Of a stretch of 64,000 bases of DNA, positions 43,094 through 49,865 are shown one piece after another. This stretch comes from Solirubrobacterales bacterium (GTDB lineage Bacteria; Actinomycetota; Thermoleophilia; Solirubrobacterales; 70-9), in contig JBIOTO010000119.1 of assembly GCA_044865945.1 (NCBI GenBank), positions 1,544 to 65,543 on the forward strand, read 5' to 3'. The translations under genes were made by a program, and so were the position numbers. The first letter of the stretch is position 1. Each line of letters begins with the position of its first letter. The notes under the pieces are model-generated. The model had not been told where the DNA came from and made no database searches. It saw only the letters and a program-made list of their open reading frames with translations.

Positions 43094-43550
43094 TTCCCGC
43101 GCTCCCGCGATCGTCTTCGCGCTCCTCGTCCTCGCGACGCTAGCCGCCTTCGCCTACGCCCAAAGGGTCAAGCGCGATCCGCTCGTCCTCGACCGCGTCA
43201 GCTTCATCGGCGCGCCGCGAGACAAGGGTCAGCCGGTCGTCCACGCCTTCACCCCGAACCGGGACTGCCGTCTCGACCTGATGCGGATCCGCTTCCGCAC
43301 CACCGTCTCCGGCAACGGAGTGGTCCAGGTGATCAAGCCCGGCGGCCGCGTCGTCTACACGCTGGCGCGAGACGAATTCCTCAAGCGCTACACGTTCCAC
43401 ACCTACTACTGGGACGGGCGGCAGCGGGGCGGCGGCACCGCTCATCCGGGTCGCTACAAGCTGCGGGTCAAATTCGACGGTCGCACCCTCGTGACCCCGG
43501 GCGTGATCCGCCTCCATCCGGCGCCGAAGGACGGCGAGCGCAAATGCTGA
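43074..43550 (+). CDS. membrane-anchored hypothetical protein (Ig-like beta-rich ectodomain?)
   Basis: It has one TM segment (AIVFALLVLATLAAFAYA) and I recognise no family. The start is ambiguous (43056, 43074 or 43086). Confidence 0.45.
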   Translation: MPKRLNDSRAPAIVFALLVLATLAAFAYAQRVKRDPLVLDRVSFIGAPRDKGQPVVHAFTPNRDCRLDLMRIRFRTTVSGNGVVQVIKPGGRVVYTLARDEFLKRYTFHTYYWDGRQRGGGTAHPGRYKLRVKFDGRTLVTPGVIRLHPAPKDGERKC

Positions 43551-45079
43551 GTGACGTCCTCGCCGGACTCGGCCTCGTCGTCGCGGCAAGCGCCAGCGGC
43601 GCCGCGATCCTGCTGCCCCCCGGCCGCCCGCGCGGCGCCGCGATGGTCCTGGCGATGGTCCTCTTCCCGGTCCTGATCGCCGGCGACCAGTGGCACACGA
43701 CCCAGATCGTCGACCTGCGCCACGACGAGGGGAGGATCGCCGCCCTGCTGGCGATCGCCGCGGTCGCGATCGGCTCCCTCACCTACGTCTTCCGCCGCTG
43801 GCCGATCCTGATGCCGCTGGCGATCATCGCCGCCCTGCCGTTCCGGGTTCCGCTCGAGGCGGGCGGCGACACGGCCAACCTGCTGGTCCCGCTCTACCTG
43901 GTGATCGCGGCGGCGGTCCTGGCCACGGTTCTGCGCGACTGGAACGACCCACCGGCCGTCCACCCGCCGCGGGCGCTGGCCTGGATCCTCGCCGCCGCGG
44001 TGGTCCTCTACGCCCTGCAGACGCTCTACTCGGAGGACTTCTCGAAGGGCCTGCAGAACGTCTGCTTCTTCTTCATCCCCTTCACCGTCGCCTACCGGCT
44101 GCTGCGCGAGGTGGAGTGGGACCGGCGCCTGTTGACCTGGGCGATGGTGCTGCTGGGGATCGAGGCGAGCCTGTTCGTCCTCGTCGGCACGGTCGAGCTG
44201 GCGACCCGCGGCCTCTTCTGGAACGACCAGATCATCCGCTCGAACGAATTCCACACCTACTTCCGCGTCAACTCGGTCTTCTGGGATCCGAACGTCTACG
44301 GGCGCTACCTGGCCCTGACCGCGGTCCTGGCCACGGCGGCAATGCTCTGGGCGCGAACCCGGAGCAACTTCTGGTTGCTCTCCGGCCTGCTCGGCGTGCT
44401 CTGGTTCGGGCTGGTCACGACCTACTCGCAGTCGAGCTTCCTCGCCCTCCTCGCCGGGCTGGCGATGCTGGCGGCGATCCGCTGGAGCTGGCGCTGGACC
44501 CTGGTCGCGGTCGCGGTGGGGACGGTTGGCGCTGCCCTGGTCATCCTCTTCGCAGGCGGCTCGGGAAAGATCACCAGCGACCGCCTCAACGTCGACCTCA
44601 GCGGCCGCGGCAGCCTCGTCTCCGGCGGCCTCGACCTCTTCTCCGAACGACCCCTCTGGGGCTACGGATCAGGCAGCTTCCAAGCCGCCTACCGCGACAA
44701 CCGCGAGAACAAGGATGCACCCGTCATTGTTTCTCACACGGAGCCCGTCACTGTGGCAGCTGAGCAAGGCCTAATAGGACTGCTCATCTACTTCTCTCTG
44801 ATCATCGTTGCGCTCCGAACCCTGGGCGCTGGCCTCTTCCGGCCCCGTCCGGCGGGTGGCGACGATCGGGAGGACTCTCCCGGTAGGGAGAGCCCCCGAT
44901 CGGAGACAGGACCCGCCGGCCACACCGCCCGCGCAGCGTTACTCGCTGCCTTCGTGGCCCTCCTCGTTCACACCCTGTCCTACGCCGGCTTCTTCGAGGA
45001 CCCGATCACCTGGGTGCTCCTGGCTGTGGGTGCCTCTTTGGCGTGGGCTGAGGCGCCGGCGGTCCGCGACCCCGCGTAG
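43544..45079 (+). CDS. O-antigen ligase/polymerase-like (Wzy_C) membrane protein
   Basis: It has more than 10 TM segments and the Wzy_C-type core TYSQSSFLALLAGLAML...PLWGYGSGSF...SHTEPVTVAAEQGLIGLL. Confidence 0.75.
   Translation: MLSDVLAGLGLVVAASASGAAILLPPGRPRGAAMVLAMVLFPVLIAGDQWHTTQIVDLRHDEGRIAALLAIAAVAIGSLTYVFRRWPILMPLAIIAALPFRVPLEAGGDTANLLVPLYLVIAAAVLATVLRDWNDPPAVHPPRALAWILAAAVVLYALQTLYSEDFSKGLQNVCFFFIPFTVAYRLLREVEWDRRLLTWAMVLLGIEASLFVLVGTVELATRGLFWNDQIIRSNEFHTYFRVNSVFWDPNVYGRYLALTAVLATAAMLWARTRSNFWLLSGLLGVLWFGLVTTYSQSSFLALLAGLAMLAAIRWSWRWTLVAVAVGTVGAALVILFAGGSGKITSDRLNVDLSGRGSLVSGGLDLFSERPLWGYGSGSFQAAYRDNRENKDAPVIVSHTEPVTVAAEQGLIGLLIYFSLIIVALRTLGAGLFRPRPAGGDDREDSPGRESPRSETGPAGHTARAALLAAFVALLVHTLSYAGFFEDPITWVLLAVGASLAWAEAPAVRDPA
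44850..44918 (+). repeat. 69-bp hairpin-forming repeat, copy 1, in frame inside the Wzy_C-like gene
   Basis: It is identical at all 69 positions to 48796-48864 (hand alignment) and encodes AGGDDREDSPGRESPRSETGPA. Confidence 0.9.
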
Positions 45080-45088
45080 GGTCCCCGC

Positions 45089-46621
45089 ATGTCGGGATAC
45101 CTGCGCCGCCTGGCGACGACCGGCGCCGCCTACACGGCGGCAAGCATCCTCTCCAAGGTCATCGCGGTCGCCCTGCTGTCGCTCTACACGCGGTACCTCA
45201 CGCCCGAGGACTACGGCGCCGCCGAGATCCTCTTCGCCGCGGTCGTCCTGGTCAGCATCGTCGTCCGCTTCGGCCTGATCGAGGCGATCCTCCGCTTCTA
45301 CTACCAGGACGACGAGGATCCGCGGCAGGTAGTCAAGAGCACCTTCGCCGGCCTCTTCTGGCTGGCGACGATCGGGGCGCTGATCCTGCTCCCCTTCGCC
45401 GGCCCGATCTCCGAAGCCCTGCTGGACGAATCGGCCCCCGAGCTGGCGCGGATCGCGATCGGCGGCCTCTGGGTGCTGACGATGTGGGAGTTCATGCTGA
45501 CCCTCTTCCGGCTCGACGAGCGGGCGCGGGCCTTCTTCCTCACCACGATCCTCAACGTGGTCGCGGCGATAGCCCTCACCGTGGTCCTCGTCGTCGGCCT
45601 CGACGAGGGCGCCCGCGGGCTGCTGCTCGGCAGCTACGCGACCGGCGCCGCCTTTGTGGTCGCGCTAATCGCCATGCAGTGGCGCCGCCTCTCGCTGCGT
45701 CCCGACGTCCCGCTGCTGCGCCGCCTCTTCCGCTTCGGCCTGCCGACGATGCCGGCCGAGGTCTCGCTCTACCTGCTCAACTTCGTCGACCGGCTGATCA
45801 TCGTCCGCTCGCTCGGGCTCGCCGAGGCCGGCCTCTACTCGCTGGCGGTCAAGTTCGCCCAGGGGGTCAACGTCCTCGTCCGCGGCTTCCAGCTCGCCTG
45901 GCCGCCGCTCGCCTACTCGATCCGCGACGACGACGAGGCCCGCCGCACCTACGCCACCGTCGTCACCCTGTTCGTCGCCGGCTGCGCCTTCGCCGTCACC
46001 GGTATGTGGCTCTTCTCGCGCTGGATGGTCCGTGCCTTGGCGGCGCCGGAGTTCTTCGACTCCTACGAAGTGATCGGCCTGATCTCCACCGCCGTCACCC
46101 TCTACGCCCTCTACCTCGTCCTCGTCGTGATCCTCGGCCGCACCGGCCGCACCGAGTTCAACTTCCCGGCCGCGATCGGCGCCCTCGTCGCCAACGTCGC
46201 CCTTAACCTGGCTCTGGTGCCGCCGCTGGGGATCGTCGGCGCCGGCCTCGCCCTCGTCGCCTCCTACCTGGTGGTGCTGGGGCTGATGTACGTCTTTACC
46301 CAGCGCCTCTTTCCGGTGCCCTACGAGTGGGGCCGGCTGCTGCGCGTGGTCCTGATCGTGGCGGCGATCGTCGGCTTCGCCGAACTGCTGGTTCCCACCT
46401 CCGGCGCCGACGGCCTGCTGATCCGAGCCGCCCTCTTCGCCGCCTACCCGCTCGCCCTCTTCGCCAGTGGCTTCTTCAGCGAGGAAGAGCGGGGCTGGCT
46501 AGCCCGCCTGAGACACCCGCGCGCCCTGATGGCCAGCTTCCGCGCCGAGGAGCCCGCGGTCGACGGCCGCATCCCCGAGGTCTACGAGGCGACGCGGCTC
46601 GACGAAGACGCCCGCGACTGA
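45089..46621 (+). CDS. Wzx-like oligosaccharide flippase (MOP superfamily polysaccharide biosynthesis protein)
   Basis: It has about 12-14 TM segments and the N-terminus ...AASILSKVIAVALLSLYTRYLTPEDYGAAEI typical of Wzx/RfbX proteins. Confidence 0.8.
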   Translation: MSGYLRRLATTGAAYTAASILSKVIAVALLSLYTRYLTPEDYGAAEILFAAVVLVSIVVRFGLIEAILRFYYQDDEDPRQVVKSTFAGLFWLATIGALILLPFAGPISEALLDESAPELARIAIGGLWVLTMWEFMLTLFRLDERARAFFLTTILNVVAAIALTVVLVVGLDEGARGLLLGSYATGAAFVVALIAMQWRRLSLRPDVPLLRRLFRFGLPTMPAEVSLYLLNFVDRLIIVRSLGLAEAGLYSLAVKFAQGVNVLVRGFQLAWPPLAYSIRDDDEARRTYATVVTLFVAGCAFAVTGMWLFSRWMVRALAAPEFFDSYEVIGLISTAVTLYALYLVLVVILGRTGRTEFNFPAAIGALVANVALNLALVPPLGIVGAGLALVASYLVVLGLMYVFTQRLFPVPYEWGRLLRVVLIVAAIVGFAELLVPTSGADGLLIRAALFAAYPLALFASGFFSEEERGWLARLRHPRALMASFRAEEPAVDGRIPEVYEATRLDEDARD

Positions 46622-46626
46622 GCTGC

Positions 46627-47541
46627 TTAAGGCCGGGCGCGGTCGCGGATCGATTCGCCGCGGTTCGGGAAGAGCGCCTGCCGCGCGTGGGCCCAGAAGA
46701 CCCTGGCGGGGCGGTTGGGGAGGACGGTCGCGGCCAGCGCCCGCACGGCGTACGACCAGGCGGTGAGCAGGCGCACCGCGAGTGCCGCGACCGCCCCGTG
46801 GTGCTTTCGCATGTAGAGCTCGCGGTTGCGGTGGAATTCGACGATTCGCGGCAGGCCCTTGGCGAGGTCGGTCGAGAGTTGATCGTGGTGGACGGCCTCG
46901 GCGCCCGGGACGAAGAGCGAGTGCCAGCCGGCGTCATCAAGGCGCTTGGCGAAGTCGCACTCGTCGTAGTAGACGAAGAAGTGAGGGTCCATGTAGCCGA
47001 CCTCGGCGGCCGCCTCGCGGCGGACCAGCAGGGCGCTCGACTGCGCCCAGTCGACCCGGCGGGTCTCGTTGCCGACGCTCTGCACGGTGAAGCGACGGTG
47101 GAGGAAGAGTGCCCCGACCGCCGCCGTGCCGACGCCCGGGAAGCGCCAGGCCGACGGGACCGGGTTGCCATCGGAGTCAAGCAGTTGCGCGGTCGCCGCC
47201 GCTGCCTTGGGGTTCGCCTCAAGCGCGGCGACCAGCGCCTGTGCGGCCCCCGGCCGCAGCTCGGAGTCCTCGTTCAGCAGCAGGCAGTACTTCCCCCGCG
47301 CCTCGCGCATCAGGGTCGAGTCGTTCTCGGCCTTGCCGGTCCGCCGATCGAGCGCGACCAGCCGAATCTCGCCTTCGAGCTCGCGCACGGCGTCCGCCGA
47401 GCCGTCGTCGGAGGCGTTGTCGAGAACGAGGATCTCGCGGTCGATCCCGGCCGGGTGGGTGCGCTCGATCGCCGCCAGGCAGGCGAGCAGGTAATCGCGG
47501 CCGTTCGTGTTCACGACGCAGTAGGAGAGCGTGGGGGGCAA
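46627..47541 (-). CDS. family 2 glycosyltransferase
   Basis: It contains SYCVVNTNGRDYLLACLAAI...ILVLDNASDDGS...LLLNEDSEL. A TTG start at 47541 is the only start upstream of the conserved N-terminus. Confidence 0.8.
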   Translation of the reverse strand: MPPTLSYCVVNTNGRDYLLACLAAIERTHPAGIDREILVLDNASDDGSADAVRELEGEIRLVALDRRTGKAENDSTLMREARGKYCLLLNEDSELRPGAAQALVAALEANPKAAAATAQLLDSDGNPVPSAWRFPGVGTAAVGALFLHRRFTVQSVGNETRRVDWAQSSALLVRREAAAEVGYMDPHFFVYYDECDFAKRLDDAGWHSLFVPGAEAVHHDQLSTDLAKGLPRIVEFHRNRELYMRKHHGAVAALAVRLLTAWSYAVRALAATVLPNRPARVFWAHARQALFPNRGESIRDRARP

Positions 47542-47568
47542 GGGGGTGACGATAATCCGCCCGGCCTG

Positions 47569-48690
47569 ATGAAGGTGCAACTCGTCGACCCCTCGGCCTT
47601 CACGCCGCCCTACGACCGCGCCCTCGCGGCGGCGCTGGCCCGTGCCGGTATCGAGGTCGAGCTGCTGACTACGAAGTTCCTCTACGGGCCGGTTCCGCCC
47701 GCCGAGGGCTACCGGGTCGATGAGCGCTTCTACCGCCGCTCCGCCGCGCGCGGGCTCGAAGCCCCGGCCCGCCTGCCGTTCAAGGCGCTGGAGCACGTTC
47801 CCGACATGCTCCGCTTCCGCCGCGAGGCCGCGGCCGACGTCGTCCACTACCAGTGGCTGACGATCCCCGCGCTCGACGCGCGCCTGCTGCCGTCGTCGCG
47901 GCCGCGGGTGATGACCGCCCACTACATCCTGCCGCCGCGCGCGAGCCGTCGGCAGGTGCGGAGCGCCCGCCGCGTCTTCGGCGCGATGGACGCCGTCGTC
48001 GCCCACTCCGAGCACAGCGCCGCGCGGCTGCGCGACGAGGTCGGCCTCGACCCGAGCAGGGTCCGCGTCATCCCCCACGGCGCCTTCGACTACCTGACCC
48101 GGCTGCCCGAGGAGAAGCCGCTGCCCGAGGAGCTGGAGGGAGCCGAGGGCCCGGTGGTCCTCTCCTTCGGCCTGCTCCGCCCTTACAAGGGAATCGAGAA
48201 CCTGCTCGACGCCTTCGGGCAGGTTGCCGACACCGACACCGAGCTCTGGGTCGTCGGCAACCCGCGAATGGACGTCGGGCCGCTGCGCCGGCAGGCGGAG
48301 AAAACGGGCGCGCGCGTCCGCTTCGTCAGTCGCTTCGTCGACGACGCCGAGATCCCGGCGATCTTCCGCCGCGCCGACCTCGTCGTCCTCCCCTACCTCG
48401 ACGCCGAGCACTCCGGCGTCCTCTACACCGGCCTCGCCTTCGGCAAGCCGCTGGTCCTCAGCGCGGTCGGCGGCTTCCCCGAGGTGGCCGAGGCCGGCGC
48501 GGCCCGGCTGATCCCGCCGGGAGACACCGACGCCCTCGCAGCGACCCTGTCGGAGCTGGTCGGCGACGAGGCCGCTCGCGCCGAGCTCGCCGCCGCCGCA
48601 TCGCGCGCCGCCGCCGGCCGGTTCTCCTGGGACGAGGCCGCCCGCCGCACCCTCGACCTCTACCGCGAGCTGATCGAGGCGCGCACGTGA
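47569..48690 (+). CDS. family 4 (GT-B, Glycos_transf_1) glycosyltransferase
   Basis: It has the C-terminal motif ...FVSRFVDDAEIPAIFRRADLVVLPYLDAEHSGVLYTGLAFGKPLVLSAVGGFPEV. The start is MKVQLVDPS. Confidence 0.85.
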   Translation: MKVQLVDPSAFTPPYDRALAAALARAGIEVELLTTKFLYGPVPPAEGYRVDERFYRRSAARGLEAPARLPFKALEHVPDMLRFRREAAADVVHYQWLTIPALDARLLPSSRPRVMTAHYILPPRASRRQVRSARRVFGAMDAVVAHSEHSAARLRDEVGLDPSRVRVIPHGAFDYLTRLPEEKPLPEELEGAEGPVVLSFGLLRPYKGIENLLDAFGQVADTDTELWVVGNPRMDVGPLRRQAEKTGARVRFVSRFVDDAEIPAIFRRADLVVLPYLDAEHSGVLYTGLAFGKPLVLSAVGGFPEVAEAGAARLIPPGDTDALAATLSELVGDEAARAELAAAASRAAAGRFSWDEAARRTLDLYRELIEART

Positions 48691-49865
48691 CCACTATCGC
48701 CGCACTCTTTTTCTGGCTCAGCTCTGGCCTGCTCGTCTATACGCACCTGGGCTATCCCCTGACGCTGTGGGTGCTGGTCAAACTGCGACGCCCCTCGGCG
48801 GGTGGCGACGATCGGGAGGACTCTCCCGGTAGGGAGAGCCCCCGATCGGAGACAGGACCCGCCGCCGACCCGCCCACCGTCTCCCTGATCATCCCCGCCT
48901 ACGACGAGCAAGAGGTGATCGCCGCCAAAGTAGCCAACGCGCTCGCGCTCGACTATCCGCGCGAGCGCCTGCAGATCGTCGTCGCCTCCGACGGCTCCTC
49001 CGACGCGACCGCCGAGCGCGCCCGCGCCGCCGGCGCCGACCTCGTCCTCGAGCTGCCGCCCGGCGGCAAGGTCGCCGCCCTCAACGCCGCCGCCGAGCAG
49101 GCGAGCGGCGAGCTCCTCGCCTTCTCCGACGCCAACAGCGCCTGGGCGCCCGACGCCCTGCGCCGGCTCGTCGCCCCCTTCGCCGACCCGGCGGTCGGCT
49201 ACGTCTGCGGCCAGGTCCGCTTCCTCGACCCCGGCGGCGGCAACCTCGAGGGGGCCTACTGGCGCTACGAGATGGCGGTGCGGGGGATGGAGTCGGCGCT
49301 GGCCGGGGTCACCGCCGGCAATGGCGCCATCTACGCGGTCCGTCGCGAGGCCTACATCCCGCTCGCCCCCTCCGGCAGCCACGACCTCAGCTTCCCCTTC
49401 GCCTTCGCCAAGCGCGGCCTGCGTTCGCTCTACGCGCCGGCGGCCCGGGCCGAGGAGAAGATGGTCCCCACGCTGGAGGGGGAGTTCGCCCGCAAACGGC
49501 GGATGATGGTCGGCCTCTGGGACATCGTCGTCGGCGAGGGGATGGTCTCCCCGCGCGGCTATCCGCCGCTCTTCGCCTTCGAGATCTCCTCCCATCGCCT
49601 GCTCCGCTACCTCAGCCCGCTGCTGCACCTCGTCGCGCTGGTCGCCAACGCCTTCCTTCTCGGCGATGGCTGGCTCTACACCGTCACCTTCATCCTCCAG
49701 CTCGCTCTGATCGCAGCCGCGCTGCTCGGACGGGTCCTGCCGATCGCCCCATTCCGCATCGCCCGCTACTACGTGATGACCACCGCCTCGATCGGCGCCG
49801 GCCTCTGGGACCGCTGGCGCCGGGGAGCAACCGGGCGCTGGGAGAAGGCGGAGGGCACGCGCTGA
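48687..49865 (+). CDS. membrane-associated family 2 glycosyltransferase
   Basis: It has an N-terminal TM segment, VSLIIPAYDEQEVI, VVASDGSSD, FSDANS and C-terminal TM helices. Its GTG start overlaps the upstream stop (GTGA). Confidence 0.85.
   Translation: MTTIAALFFWLSSGLLVYTHLGYPLTLWVLVKLRRPSAGGDDREDSPGRESPRSETGPAADPPTVSLIIPAYDEQEVIAAKVANALALDYPRERLQIVVASDGSSDATAERARAAGADLVLELPPGGKVAALNAAAEQASGELLAFSDANSAWAPDALRRLVAPFADPAVGYVCGQVRFLDPGGGNLEGAYWRYEMAVRGMESALAGVTAGNGAIYAVRREAYIPLAPSGSHDLSFPFAFAKRGLRSLYAPAARAEEKMVPTLEGEFARKRRMMVGLWDIVVGEGMVSPRGYPPLFAFEISSHRLLRYLSPLLHLVALVANAFLLGDGWLYTVTFILQLALIAAALLGRVLPIAPFRIARYYVMTTASIGAGLWDRWRRGATGRWEKAEGTR
48796..48864 (+). repeat. 69-bp hairpin-forming repeat, copy 2, in frame inside the GT2 gene
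   Basis: It is identical to 44850-44918, in the same orientation and the same codon phase. Confidence 0.9.

Follow-up and report, generated by a model that had tools for sequence, protein, structure and literature searches.

The locus studied here raises the question of why a single 69-nucleotide sequence should stand twice, in frame, in two genes of a glycan cluster. The window, a stretch of 64,000 nucleotides from a Solirubrobacterales bacterium, comes from a short-read metagenome-assembled genome (MAG). The 69-mer (CGGCGGGTGGCGACGATCGGGAGGACTCTCCCGGTAGGGAGAGCCCCCGATCGGAGACAGGACCCGCCG) occurs in it exactly twice, at 44850-44918 and 48796-48864, both times on the + strand and at a distance of 3946 nt, and the identity between the copies ends precisely at both borders of the 69 nt. 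None of 100 shuffled sequences contained such a match. Copy 1 is in frame in the gene for an O-antigen ligase/polymerase-like membrane protein (Wzy_C; 511 aa; 43544..45079, + strand), where it covers residues 437-458 in a C-terminal loop beyond the Pfam domain (284-417). Copy 2 is in frame in a family-2 glycosyltransferase (GT2) gene (392 aa; 48687..49865, + strand) and covers residues 38-59, in the linker that leads from the N-terminal membrane helix to the GT2 domain, which starts at residue 62. Both copies begin at codon position 2 of the host gene and encode the peptide AGGDDREDSPGRESPRSETGPA. Between 44918 and 48796, outside the element, lie genes for a wzx-like flippase (45089-46621, +), another GT2 (46627-47541, -), and a GT4 (47569-48690, +). 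The first-pass annotation had described two direct copies in one codon phase bracketing glycan genes, and this arrangement is borne out. Since the phase is the same in both genes, a crossover between the copies would, as also predicted there, give an in-frame ligase-GT2 fusion.

The 69-mer folds into a near-complete hairpin

The 69-mer is predicted to pair at positions 1-8/62-69, 14-21/46-53, 23-24/44-45, and 26-32/37-43 around a GGTA loop, in agreement with the near-complete hairpin with terminal inverted repeats drawn in the first-pass annotation. As RNA, the fold reaches -51.2 kcal/mol compared with -28.9 +/- 3.3 kcal/mol for shuffled sequences (z -6.8; as good in 0 of 200), and as DNA it reaches -28.5 kcal/mol (z -6.0).

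In copy 2, with all parts given on the + strand, the outer stem is formed by 48796..48803 (positions 1-8) and 48857..48864 (positions 62-69); positions 1-2 covary with 68-69, and a T (U.G) is tolerated at position 4. The internal loop has a 5' side, GGCGA (48804..48808), which is invariant and asymmetric and belongs to a constant "platform" common to all length variants, and a 3' side, GAGACAGG (48849..48856), which is also invariant. The middle stem (48809..48816, positions 14-21, with 48841..48848, positions 46-53) contains a hypervariable triplet at 18-20 (CGG in copy 2) that covaries with 47-49. The apical stem-loop (48818..48840; GG/CC plus CTCTCCC-GGTA-GGGAGAG) is an exchangeable module, replaced wholesale in variant copies. 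The 3' arms of the outer and middle stems are assigned from the predicted fold and from covariation.

A covariance model scored copy 1 at 94.2 bits and copy 2 at 89.9 bits and, run with filters off, found no third copy within the 64 kb. The segment 42608-42687 was rejected as a family member, being a weak match (19.6 bits) with many non-pairs. A possible relic of a third insertion, assigned tentatively, lies earlier in the ligase gene (site A; 43943..43975, +), where the window retains only NDPPAVHPPRA. The DNA of this site is similar to both element ends; elsewhere, site A holds a full element in two other species and a diverged copy, in another frame, in a third. The element has a G+C content of 73%. 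Five of its six frames are free of stops, which we dropped as evidence, the chance expectation at that G+C content being about 0.64 per frame by our own estimate.

The hairpin belongs to a lineage-specific repeat family

An exact 24-nt core of the element matched more than 114 stretches from 27 species, all Solirubrobacterales/Actinomycetota MAGs, and the matches include two closed long-read chromosomes of 2.6-2.7 Mb (OY969703.1 and OY969925.1). The covariance model recognized 125 copies in 732 kb. The further copies that the earlier readings called for therefore exist, and extrapolation from 2 per 64 kb gives about 80 copies per genome. The element comes in length classes of 69, 72, 78, 81, and 90 nt, all multiples of three, plus one of 77 nt, so that five of the six classes are 3n; with its flanks it measures about 85-100 nt. 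Its base is constant and consists of the outer stem and the invariant asymmetric internal loop (GGGTGGCGAC...GGAGACAGGACCC), on which the apical hairpin is exchanged.

No Rfam 15 family reached its gathering score for the element, the only above-threshold match in the window being a tRNA, and permissive Rfam scans with one canonical and one long variant returned chance hairpin matches only (miRNA precursors; 6C at 16.5 of 47 bits). Two patterns gave 0 matches in viral contigs, so a phage origin is unsupported. A 32-aa window peptide had only one match in a representative protein library, a database of a size for which this query is too short. In the literature, we found no account of such repeats in Solirubrobacterales or Thermoleophilia. 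The element belongs to a family of short palindromic interspersed repeats (69-90 nt) that is specific to one lineage, an uncultured Solirubrobacterales clade, and this family, in frame inside many genes of uncultured soil actinobacteria, is previously undescribed.

Conservation follows the fold

Outside the search pattern, identity across species reaches at least 98% at every position except -1/70, 1/69, 2/68, 18-20/47-49, and position 4, and the three variable stem segments change by compensating pairs only; the invariance of core positions 23-46 is partly built in by the search pattern. The covariation score was 0.276 compared with 0.094 in shuffles (as high in 0 of 500), with slid controls at 0.03-0.08, and 90% of the paired cells were complementary compared with 79% in shuffles. 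The outer stem, CGGCGGG(T)/(A)CCCGCC G, with 7-8 perfect base pairs, is kept or covaries in all copies. Among orthologous copies, identity at third codon positions was 0.86-1.00, against 0.58-0.75 in the flanks. Changes at covarying positions follow the pairing partner and alter the encoded residues (R to S/I/A and R to E/I/A/V). Rare codons, which are clustered in the element within coding sequences (CDSs), are invariant, and selection therefore acts on the folded nucleic acid and not on the peptide. The conserved entity is the fold. On the + strand, G.U wobble pairs outnumber A.C pairs by 21 to 3, with 12 of the 21 at one position; because one position dominates and the signal does not follow the orientation of transcription, we made no use of this excess to distinguish RNA from DNA.

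Copies are gained, shortened, flipped, and exchanged at fixed sites

We then compared alleles with and without the element across genomes, as the first-pass annotation had suggested, and found gain, loss, and internal deletion at orthologous sites. Presence and absence were scored in 7 species at ligase sites A and B and in the GT2 linker; the matrix includes one 3'-fragment and one solo-stem relic ("DAPPAG..PAGQ"). A small membrane protein has 69 aa with the element and 40-41 aa without it. Elements in opposite orientations occupy one and the same site in the genes for NuoC, a PyrD-like protein, and a RibD-like protein. At a site in a helicase gene, the flanks and the base align and the apical ~35 nt are completely different. 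The behaviour of the family is thus that of mobile, recombining DNA, with copies gained, internally deleted, flipped, and apex-swapped at fixed sites.

The signatures of a classical transposon were looked for in several ways. No consistent direct repeat marked a target-site duplication around 105-117 copies; the flank boxes, 5' G[CT][TC]CCT[CG] and 3' GTCCCT, are alike but non-identical within copies. The filled/empty pair of the small membrane protein had neither a clean boundary nor a target duplication, and its downstream DNA is non-homologous. Near-isogenic empty alleles were absent among the cluster members of NuoC, the ligase, and GT2. Within 0.96 Mb surrounding the copies, a crude search (Y1/HUH motif regular expressions, and tblastn with an approximate E. 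coli RayT sequence) detected neither a transposase nor a RAYT-like gene. The proposal that the 69-mer is a miniature non-autonomous mobile element is largely supported: the dispersal and the polymorphism in presence, deletion, and orientation stand, whereas target-site duplication and transposase were not found. No near-isogenic filled/empty pair with clean boundaries came to light, so active transposition is something we infer rather than observe. The near-perfect conservation at old orthologous insertions is unlike that of purely selfish, decaying repeats, and suggests that copies may have a host function.

Placement in genes and at gene ends

With our own gene caller, 55 of 117 copies (47%) fell inside long CDSs of 19 host families, among them NuoC, DnaX, and a helicase. 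A single codon phase was used by 36 of the 37 sense copies, and likewise by all 18 antisense copies. The inserts fall outside Pfam domains: the NuoC insert occupies a loop that the M. smegmatis protein is without, and the GT2 insert a linker that is variable among homologues without the element. Of the 65 non-CDS copies, 38 have a stop codon within 45 nt, and 16 are flanked by a stop on one side and a start on the other. Where a neighbouring gene ends no more than 45 nt away, the copy is antisense to it in 38 cases and sense in 6, an orientation bias that points to some transcript-level or gene-end constraint.

Such placement could mean that the hairpins are cis-regulatory RNA structures of the host, a reading compatible with a mobile origin. 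Within genes they would be translational pause sites between protein segments, and between cistrons they would stabilize mRNA 3' ends, terminate transcription, or couple translation. In the coupling variant, an extended base stem (GCUCC/GGAGC) would mask the Shine-Dalgarno sequence of the next gene until the upstream ribosome opens the stem. The gene-end placement and the 38:6 bias argue for this reading, as do the strong covariation, the invariant loop sequence, and the rare-codon clusters that accompany a -51 kcal/mol fold within CDSs. Moreover, the reverse complement of the 5' flank, GAGGAGCG, stands 5-25 nt upstream of start codons, and the extended base stem is better preserved in intergenic copies (mean 3.05 of 5 bp) than in CDS copies (2.25). 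However, the intragenic copies comprise 36 sense and 18 antisense ones, both orientations occur even at one orthologous site, and the two transcripts differ in loop sequence; the genes of sister species manage without the element; and the hairpin is absent from Rfam. No run of T follows the hairpins in the window (GCCACACCGCC, CCGACCCGCC) or in the flanks of other copies, and a G+C-rich hairpin without a following T/U run does not qualify as an intrinsic (Rho-independent) terminator. Taken together, we regard host cis-regulation as a tentative and somewhat unlikely account of the family. For the window itself, the earlier suggestion of an RNA-level structure holds in so far as the hairpin is under selection; a signal for RNase or pausing specific to this operon is not indicated, because nothing ties the hairpin to the operon and copies stand both with and against the direction of transcription.

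A probable mobile hairpin family and its alternatives

The explanation that we favour, and consider probable, is a family of mobile hairpins resembling miniature inverted-repeat elements (MITEs) and Rickettsia palindromic elements (RPEs), tolerated in linkers and at gene ends, with the window copies as two of its independent members. Copies persist only where they are harmless, in gene parts coding for linkers and loops, just past stop codons, and between cistrons. Within genes, a 3n length and one stop-free hydrophilic frame per orientation would allow the element to be read through as an insert of 23-30 aa, as judged from the sequence. A putative trans-acting factor would recognize the base of the hairpin; the candidate is an enzyme that mobilizes or recombines single-stranded or cruciform DNA, an RNA-binding factor being less likely. 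Recognition by such a factor, together with gene conversion among copies, could keep the sequence near-identical across species.

A stronger form, which we think unlikely, holds that the system has been domesticated: the copies would be genome-wide structured modules under purifying selection by a dedicated putative trans-acting factor that recognizes the asymmetric base, flippable and with an apex exchangeable like a cassette. If true, it would imply that the copies help to couple or pause translation at gene ends and linkers, or act as DNA-level address signals, and that hairpins are recombined or home site-specifically inside essential genes by a system of a new kind.

Concerning the glycan cluster, the first-pass annotation had raised the possibility that the direct copies are a programmed recombination substrate, RecA- or slippage-mediated loss of 44919-48864 creating the ligase-GT2 fusion and switching the glycan off. 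The copies are indeed identical direct repeats of 69 nt in one phase, and in assemblies unrelated genes can become joined through the repeat, as in a 586-nt contig (P0052) that runs from a GT2 N-terminus through the element into a DnaX C-terminus. But the window copies are 2 of some 80 per genome by extrapolation, and seven species carry an intact ligase and GT2 with any mix of 0, 1, or 2 copies. In OY969925.1 the two-copy state is kept, at a spacing of 3,981 nt. No Wzy_C+GT2 fusion protein was found among 300 matches to a synthetic junction query, a non-exhaustive set in which the window's own full-length proteins were not among the matches. Repeats of only 69 nt are poorly suited to frequent homologous recombination. 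A metagenome scan for the deletion junction gave 0 matches and was uninformative, because the intact ligase junction, used as positive control, gave 0 as well. We judge the deletion switch highly improbable. The window copies, in the C-terminal loop of the ligase and the N-terminal linker of GT2, are independent insertions and neither a functional pair nor a dedicated glycan switch.

Equally doubtful is a role for the encoded peptide. One 22-24 aa peptide recurs across many unrelated predicted proteins, is hydrophilic, and is located in loops and linkers, so the conserved unit might be a peptide module (AGGDDREDSPGRESPRSETGPA) that serves as an acidic, flexible linker, is targeted by a protease or kinase, or works as a sorting tag, and that has spread in the manner of exon shuffling. 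At sites where sense copies also occur, however, antisense copies give another peptide, AGPVSDRGLSLPGESSRSSPPA, and for one orthologous copy the reading frame is a third one (RRMATIGRTLPAGRAPDRRQDPP). More than half of the copies lie outside long CDSs and the peptide has no Pfam match, while synonymous rare codons are invariant and the variable positions alter residues in step with pairing; it is very unlikely that a protein-level function is what is conserved. Chance similarity or an assembly artefact, for which the short-read origin of the window might speak, is effectively excluded by the shuffle control and by the presence of the element in closed long-read chromosomes and 27 independent assemblies.

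Comparison with known systems

The closest parallel to the mobile hairpin family is found in the RPEs, short palindromic sequences without a transposase that occur in frame in unrelated, often essential genes as well as in non-coding DNA, where they contribute a peptide to surface or loop regions and are kept at orthologous sites across species (PMC10969869). The Solirubrobacterales element shares the palindrome, the lack of a detected transposase, the in-frame position in unrelated genes, the loop peptide, and the orthologous retention. RPEs measure about 100-150 bp, reside in AT-rich alphaproteobacteria, and form several families, each with a conserved peptide. The element described here, in contrast, has 69-90 nt and 73% G+C, is read in both orientations at one phase each, is near-invariant in 27 species, and displays compensatory covariation, flips, and apex swaps at fixed sites. 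Because phylum and base composition differ, we treat RPEs as an analogue and not as kin; a sequence relationship is not expected.

Other repeat classes match in part. REP/REPIN sequences are likewise hairpin repeats of tens of nucleotides with high within-genome identity, long vertical persistence, and positions near gene ends, and the conservation of REPINs has been ascribed to a single-copy trans-acting enzyme that recognizes the folded DNA. They are extragenic, whereas 47% of the present copies lie inside long CDSs; they carry a terminal GTAG/CGTC tag, whereas the ends here are SSGCGGG/CCCGCSS and GTAG appears only in the apical loop and is missing from some variants; and no RAYT was seen in the loci around element copies by the crude motif and tblastn search. 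Like MITEs (Correia, ERIC, BOX, RUP, Nezha), the element is non-autonomous and dispersed, has terminal inverted repeats and insertion polymorphism, and gives in-frame fusions, which are occasional in MITEs. Unlike them, it has no detected target-site duplication or parent insertion sequence with matching ends, and the whole element is one hairpin instead of two terminal repeats around a core.

The attC sites of integrons are recognized as folded single-stranded DNA; their structure is selected, with a conserved base whose unpaired, asymmetric positions give polarity, and a variable apex. The conserved asymmetric base and the apical region of variable length and sequence recall this organization, as a resemblance only, since R'/R'' GTTRRRY boxes, cassette boundaries, and a nearby integrase are lacking and the copies lie inside genes. 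MIRUs are actinobacterial repeats found between cistrons of operons in one preferred orientation to transcription, with stop and start arranged for coupling. Both they and the present family are actinobacterial repeats of 40-100 nt in intercistronic gaps, but MIRUs are direct, often tandem, non-palindromic, and not in frame inside genes, whereas this element is palindromic and intragenic. Like the present family, the GC clusters and "byp" elements of yeast mitochondria are mobile hairpins rich in G+C that enter coding regions; gene conversion spreads or homogenizes them. They are organellar, and byp elements are skipped by ribosomes; for the Solirubrobacterales element, read-through is the simpler assumption given the open 3n frames.

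In practical terms, the repeat leads to chimeric contigs and to chimeric gene calls when soil metagenomes are assembled and annotated, and a recurring "domain-like" peptide in predicted proteomes could mislead homology searches. To our knowledge, in-frame colonization of essential genes by palindromic repeats has had essentially one textbook case, the RPEs of Rickettsia. The Solirubrobacterales family adds a second case, which is independent of the first, much cleaner, and drawn from free-living actinobacteria of high G+C content, with features unreported for RPEs: near-absolute conservation over 27 species with compensatory covariation, one phase per orientation, mostly 3n lengths, flips, and apex replacement. 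It makes testable how such hairpins spread, what recognizes them, whether they are translated, and whether a hairpin can be under selection both as nucleic acid and as code at the same time.

Two copies of a palindromic 69-mer lie in frame among glycan genes

The window, whose sequence matches NCBI contig JBIOTZ010000083.1 of GCA_044866505.1, holds two exact copies of the 69-mer in + orientation (44850-44918 and 48796-48864), with no matches among shuffles; identity between the copies stops precisely at the 69-nt borders, and a covariance model run with filters off found no further copy in the window. The hairpin drawn in the first-pass annotation was reproduced, with an RNA folding energy of -51.2 kcal/mol compared with -28.9 +/- 3.3 kcal/mol for dinucleotide shuffles (z -6.8) and a DNA folding energy of -28.5 kcal/mol (z -6.0). 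The gene order it gave was also right: a Wzy_C ligase-like gene hosting copy 1 (43544-45079), a wzx-like gene (45089-46621), a GT2 gene without a copy (46627-47541, - strand), a GT4 gene (47569-48690), and a second GT2 gene hosting copy 2 (48687-49865). Each copy starts at codon position 2, and its peptide AGGDDREDSPGRESPRSETGPA forms residues 437-458 of the ligase-like protein, C-terminal to the Wzy_C domain, and residues 38-59 of the GT2 protein, N-terminal to the GT2 domain. This common phase confirms that a crossover between them would be in frame. The sole Rfam match in the window is a tRNA gene at 209-282 on the - strand (RF00005, 72.3 bits).

The repeat belongs to a lineage-specific family

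Protein searches with the element translated in its five stop-free frames found the element peptide in dozens of unrelated predicted proteins from Solirubrobacterales MAGs, including NuoC (195-197 aa), membrane proteins of 65-74 aa, and an E2 lipoyl and a photolyase-like protein; a few proteins had the other frames. Further copies are plentiful beyond the window. An exact 24-nt core, scanned in one genome per species, occurred in at least 114 stretches of at least 27 assemblies, and the core matches listed came exclusively from Solirubrobacterales/Actinomycetota MAGs, two closed chromosomes (2.6-2.7 Mb) among them. Searching 732 kb of element-bearing loci with a covariance model based on 68 distinct copies identified 125 members. 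The density in the window (2 per 64 kb) extrapolates to, rather than counts, about 80 copies per genome. No copy was detected in the viral contigs searched, Rfam gave no family match, and literature searches found no description of such repeats for the Solirubrobacterales/Thermoleophilia lineage. The family is lineage-specific and so far undescribed.

Conservation resides in the nucleic acid

Among the matches listed, positions outside the search pattern were at least 98% identical over 114 copies, with few exceptions (-1/70, 1/69, 2/68, 18-20/47-49, and position 4, which is C or T); the invariance of positions 23-46 is partly built in by the search pattern. The sole kind of change at variable positions was compensating pairs, seen as triplet sets (CGG/CCG, CCG/CGG, GCG/CGC, GGG/CCC) and 4-nt sets (CGGG/CCCG, TCCG/CGGA, ATTG/CAAT, GCCG/CGGC), and the apical stem of near-core copies recovered by nhmmer showed a compensatory C/G swap. 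In the named structure, pairing extended to 90% of cells versus 79% in shuffles. The covariation score was 0.276 compared with 0.094 when shuffled (0/500 as high) and 0.03-0.08 with slid partners, and six pairs showed 11-42 double changes each. The wobble-pair asymmetry of 21 to 3 was driven mainly by one position and does not discriminate between DNA and RNA as the selected form. The fold is under selection. Moreover, invariant positions hold many codons rare at 70% G+C (GGT, GAT, TCT, AGG, CGA, ACA, GGA), changes at variable positions alter amino acids, and third-codon identity between orthologous copies was 0.86-1.00 within the element versus 0.58-0.75 in the flanking gene. The target of selection or homogenisation is therefore the nucleic acid rather than the peptide.

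Many copies have conserved extra flanks, 5' cgCTCCTC and 3' GCCGGAGC, which lengthen the stem, to a greater extent in intergenic copies, and are mere traces at the two window copies. In 45 of 105 copies, a GTCCCT(A/G) box lies 12-14 nt beyond the 3' end of the 69-mer (window 48879-48886, GTCTCCCT). Since the matching bases are host codons in GT2 (TVSL) and NuoC (GLP), the box may reflect target preference rather than an element component. Its reverse complement provides antisense genes with TAG stops (TAG in 20/38 versus a 34% background).

Copies occupy linkers and gene ends

According to our own codon-usage caller, whose gene calls are approximate, 55 of 117 copies lie inside long CDSs of 19 families. 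One phase is shared by 36 of 37 sense intragenic copies, and one by all 18 antisense copies, which encode AGPVSDRGLSLPGESSRSSPPA. The element resides in frame in genes, and its inserts occupy loops and linkers of host proteins. The NuoC insert separates residues that adjoin each other in 8e9g_C of M. smegmatis, the DnaX insert lies within its acidic linker, and the GT2 insert is in a linker that differs in length and sequence among element-free homologues. The other 65 copies are close to gene ends, although some of these "intergenic" calls are in fact small genes missed by the caller. Where a gene stop lies at most 45 nt from a non-CDS copy, the gene is antisense to the element in 38 cases and sense in 6; stop-start gaps are occupied by 16 copies.

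Copies are gained, lost, inverted and exchanged at the apex

Ligase sites A and B and the GT2 linker were compared across seven species. The window and OY969925 have copies at site B and the linker and none at site A; DASUTJ also has only B of the ligase sites, with just a 3' fragment in the linker. DASZEL is occupied only at the linker and DASTXV only at site A. DASULS has copies at both ligase sites, its linker lying outside the fetched stretch. DASSTG has a linker copy, a solo-stem relic (DAPPAG..PAGQ) at site B, and a site A copy (L051 7424-7508) translated in a different frame as RRMATIGRTLPAGRAPDRRQDPP, an upstream 1-nt shift being offset downstream. In the window, the ligase loop NDPPAVHPPRA (43943-43975, AACGACCCACCGGCCGTCCACCCGCCGCGGGCG) sits exactly where other species have the element (full in two, diverged in a third); because its DNA resembles two element ends joined, it is possibly what remains of a copy that lost its interior. 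A conserved small membrane protein is 69 aa with the element and 40-41 aa without it, the element adding 28 codons in other strains (L118 1501-1710 versus L116/L117 1501-1626). In both alleles, the stop of this gene and that of a convergent gene overlap in one CTAG tetranucleotide.

Identical orthologous sites carry the element in sense in some species and in antisense in others (NuoC residue 99, PyrD-like 272, RibD-like 297). In-place inversion of a 3n palindrome keeps phase and would explain the one-phase-per-orientation pattern. At a helicase site in four species (L007 2420-2660, L056 1040-1270, L054, L036; alignment A3), flanks and element base align and the apical ~35 nt are wholly unlike, the elements there being of the canonical (window) type, of another 69-nt type, or of a 78-nt type. 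The base common to variant classes is GGGTGGC...CAGGACCC, with class lengths of 69, 72, 78, 81, and 90 nt plus one 77-nt class. In 15/15 close pairs (L011, L012, L020, L022, L030, L036, L040, L046, L048, L056, L060, L063, L066, L074, L097), the variant lies upstream of the canonical copy and inverted relative to it, head-to-head across 27-431 nt of host sequence. Half copies ATCGGAGACAGGACCCGCCGG (3' part only) directly after full copies at L004 ~2086-2114 and L024 479-509 are nested or partial duplications.

A probable family of mobile, recombining palindromic repeats

The copies are best interpreted as a lineage-specific family of palindromic repeats that move and recombine, and that linkers and gene ends tolerate. 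The mobile mini-element suggested by the first-pass annotation was largely right, given the dispersed family and gain/loss polymorphism; target duplication was not found in copy flanks or one filled/empty small-protein pair, nor a transposase in 0.96 Mb around copies by motif regex or tblastn with an approximate RayT query. The elements would transpose, a trans-acting factor would recognise the constant asymmetric base, and gene conversion would homogenise copies. A host function, for example as an RNA pause, coupling or stabiliser, stays alive because a purely selfish model incompletely explains why old insertions are conserved almost perfectly and why orientation at gene ends is biased 38:6; of the suggested RNA-level signal, the importance of structure held and its operon specificity did not. 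The proposed on/off switch, in which crossover would delete 44919-48864 and fuse ligase to GT2, found no support, as both copies are ordinary family members, sister species keep the same genes intact with other copy combinations, and OY969925.1 retains the two-copy state with a spacing of 3,981 nt. A word-indexed search gave no Wzy_C-GT2 fusion protein, a weak negative in that it returned only fragments <250 aa and missed the window's full-length ligase and GT2, and a metagenome scan for the deletion junction was uninformative, giving 0 matches as did its own positive control.

The predicted protein of P0052, a protein-search match on a 586-nt ENA contig, joins a GT2 N-terminus, the element, and a DnaX C-terminus. 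It could be an assembly chimera caused by the repeat or a genuine recombinant, and warns that the repeat breaks short-read assemblies.

The element is analogous to Rickettsia palindromic elements, which colonise ORFs in frame (PMC10969869), and resembles REPINs in hairpin form and lasting high identity. Interspersed palindromic repeats able to sit in frame are known already; this family is unusual in using a single phase in each orientation, in its modular variants of mostly 3n length, in its flips in place and apex cassettes, and in its invariance across species.
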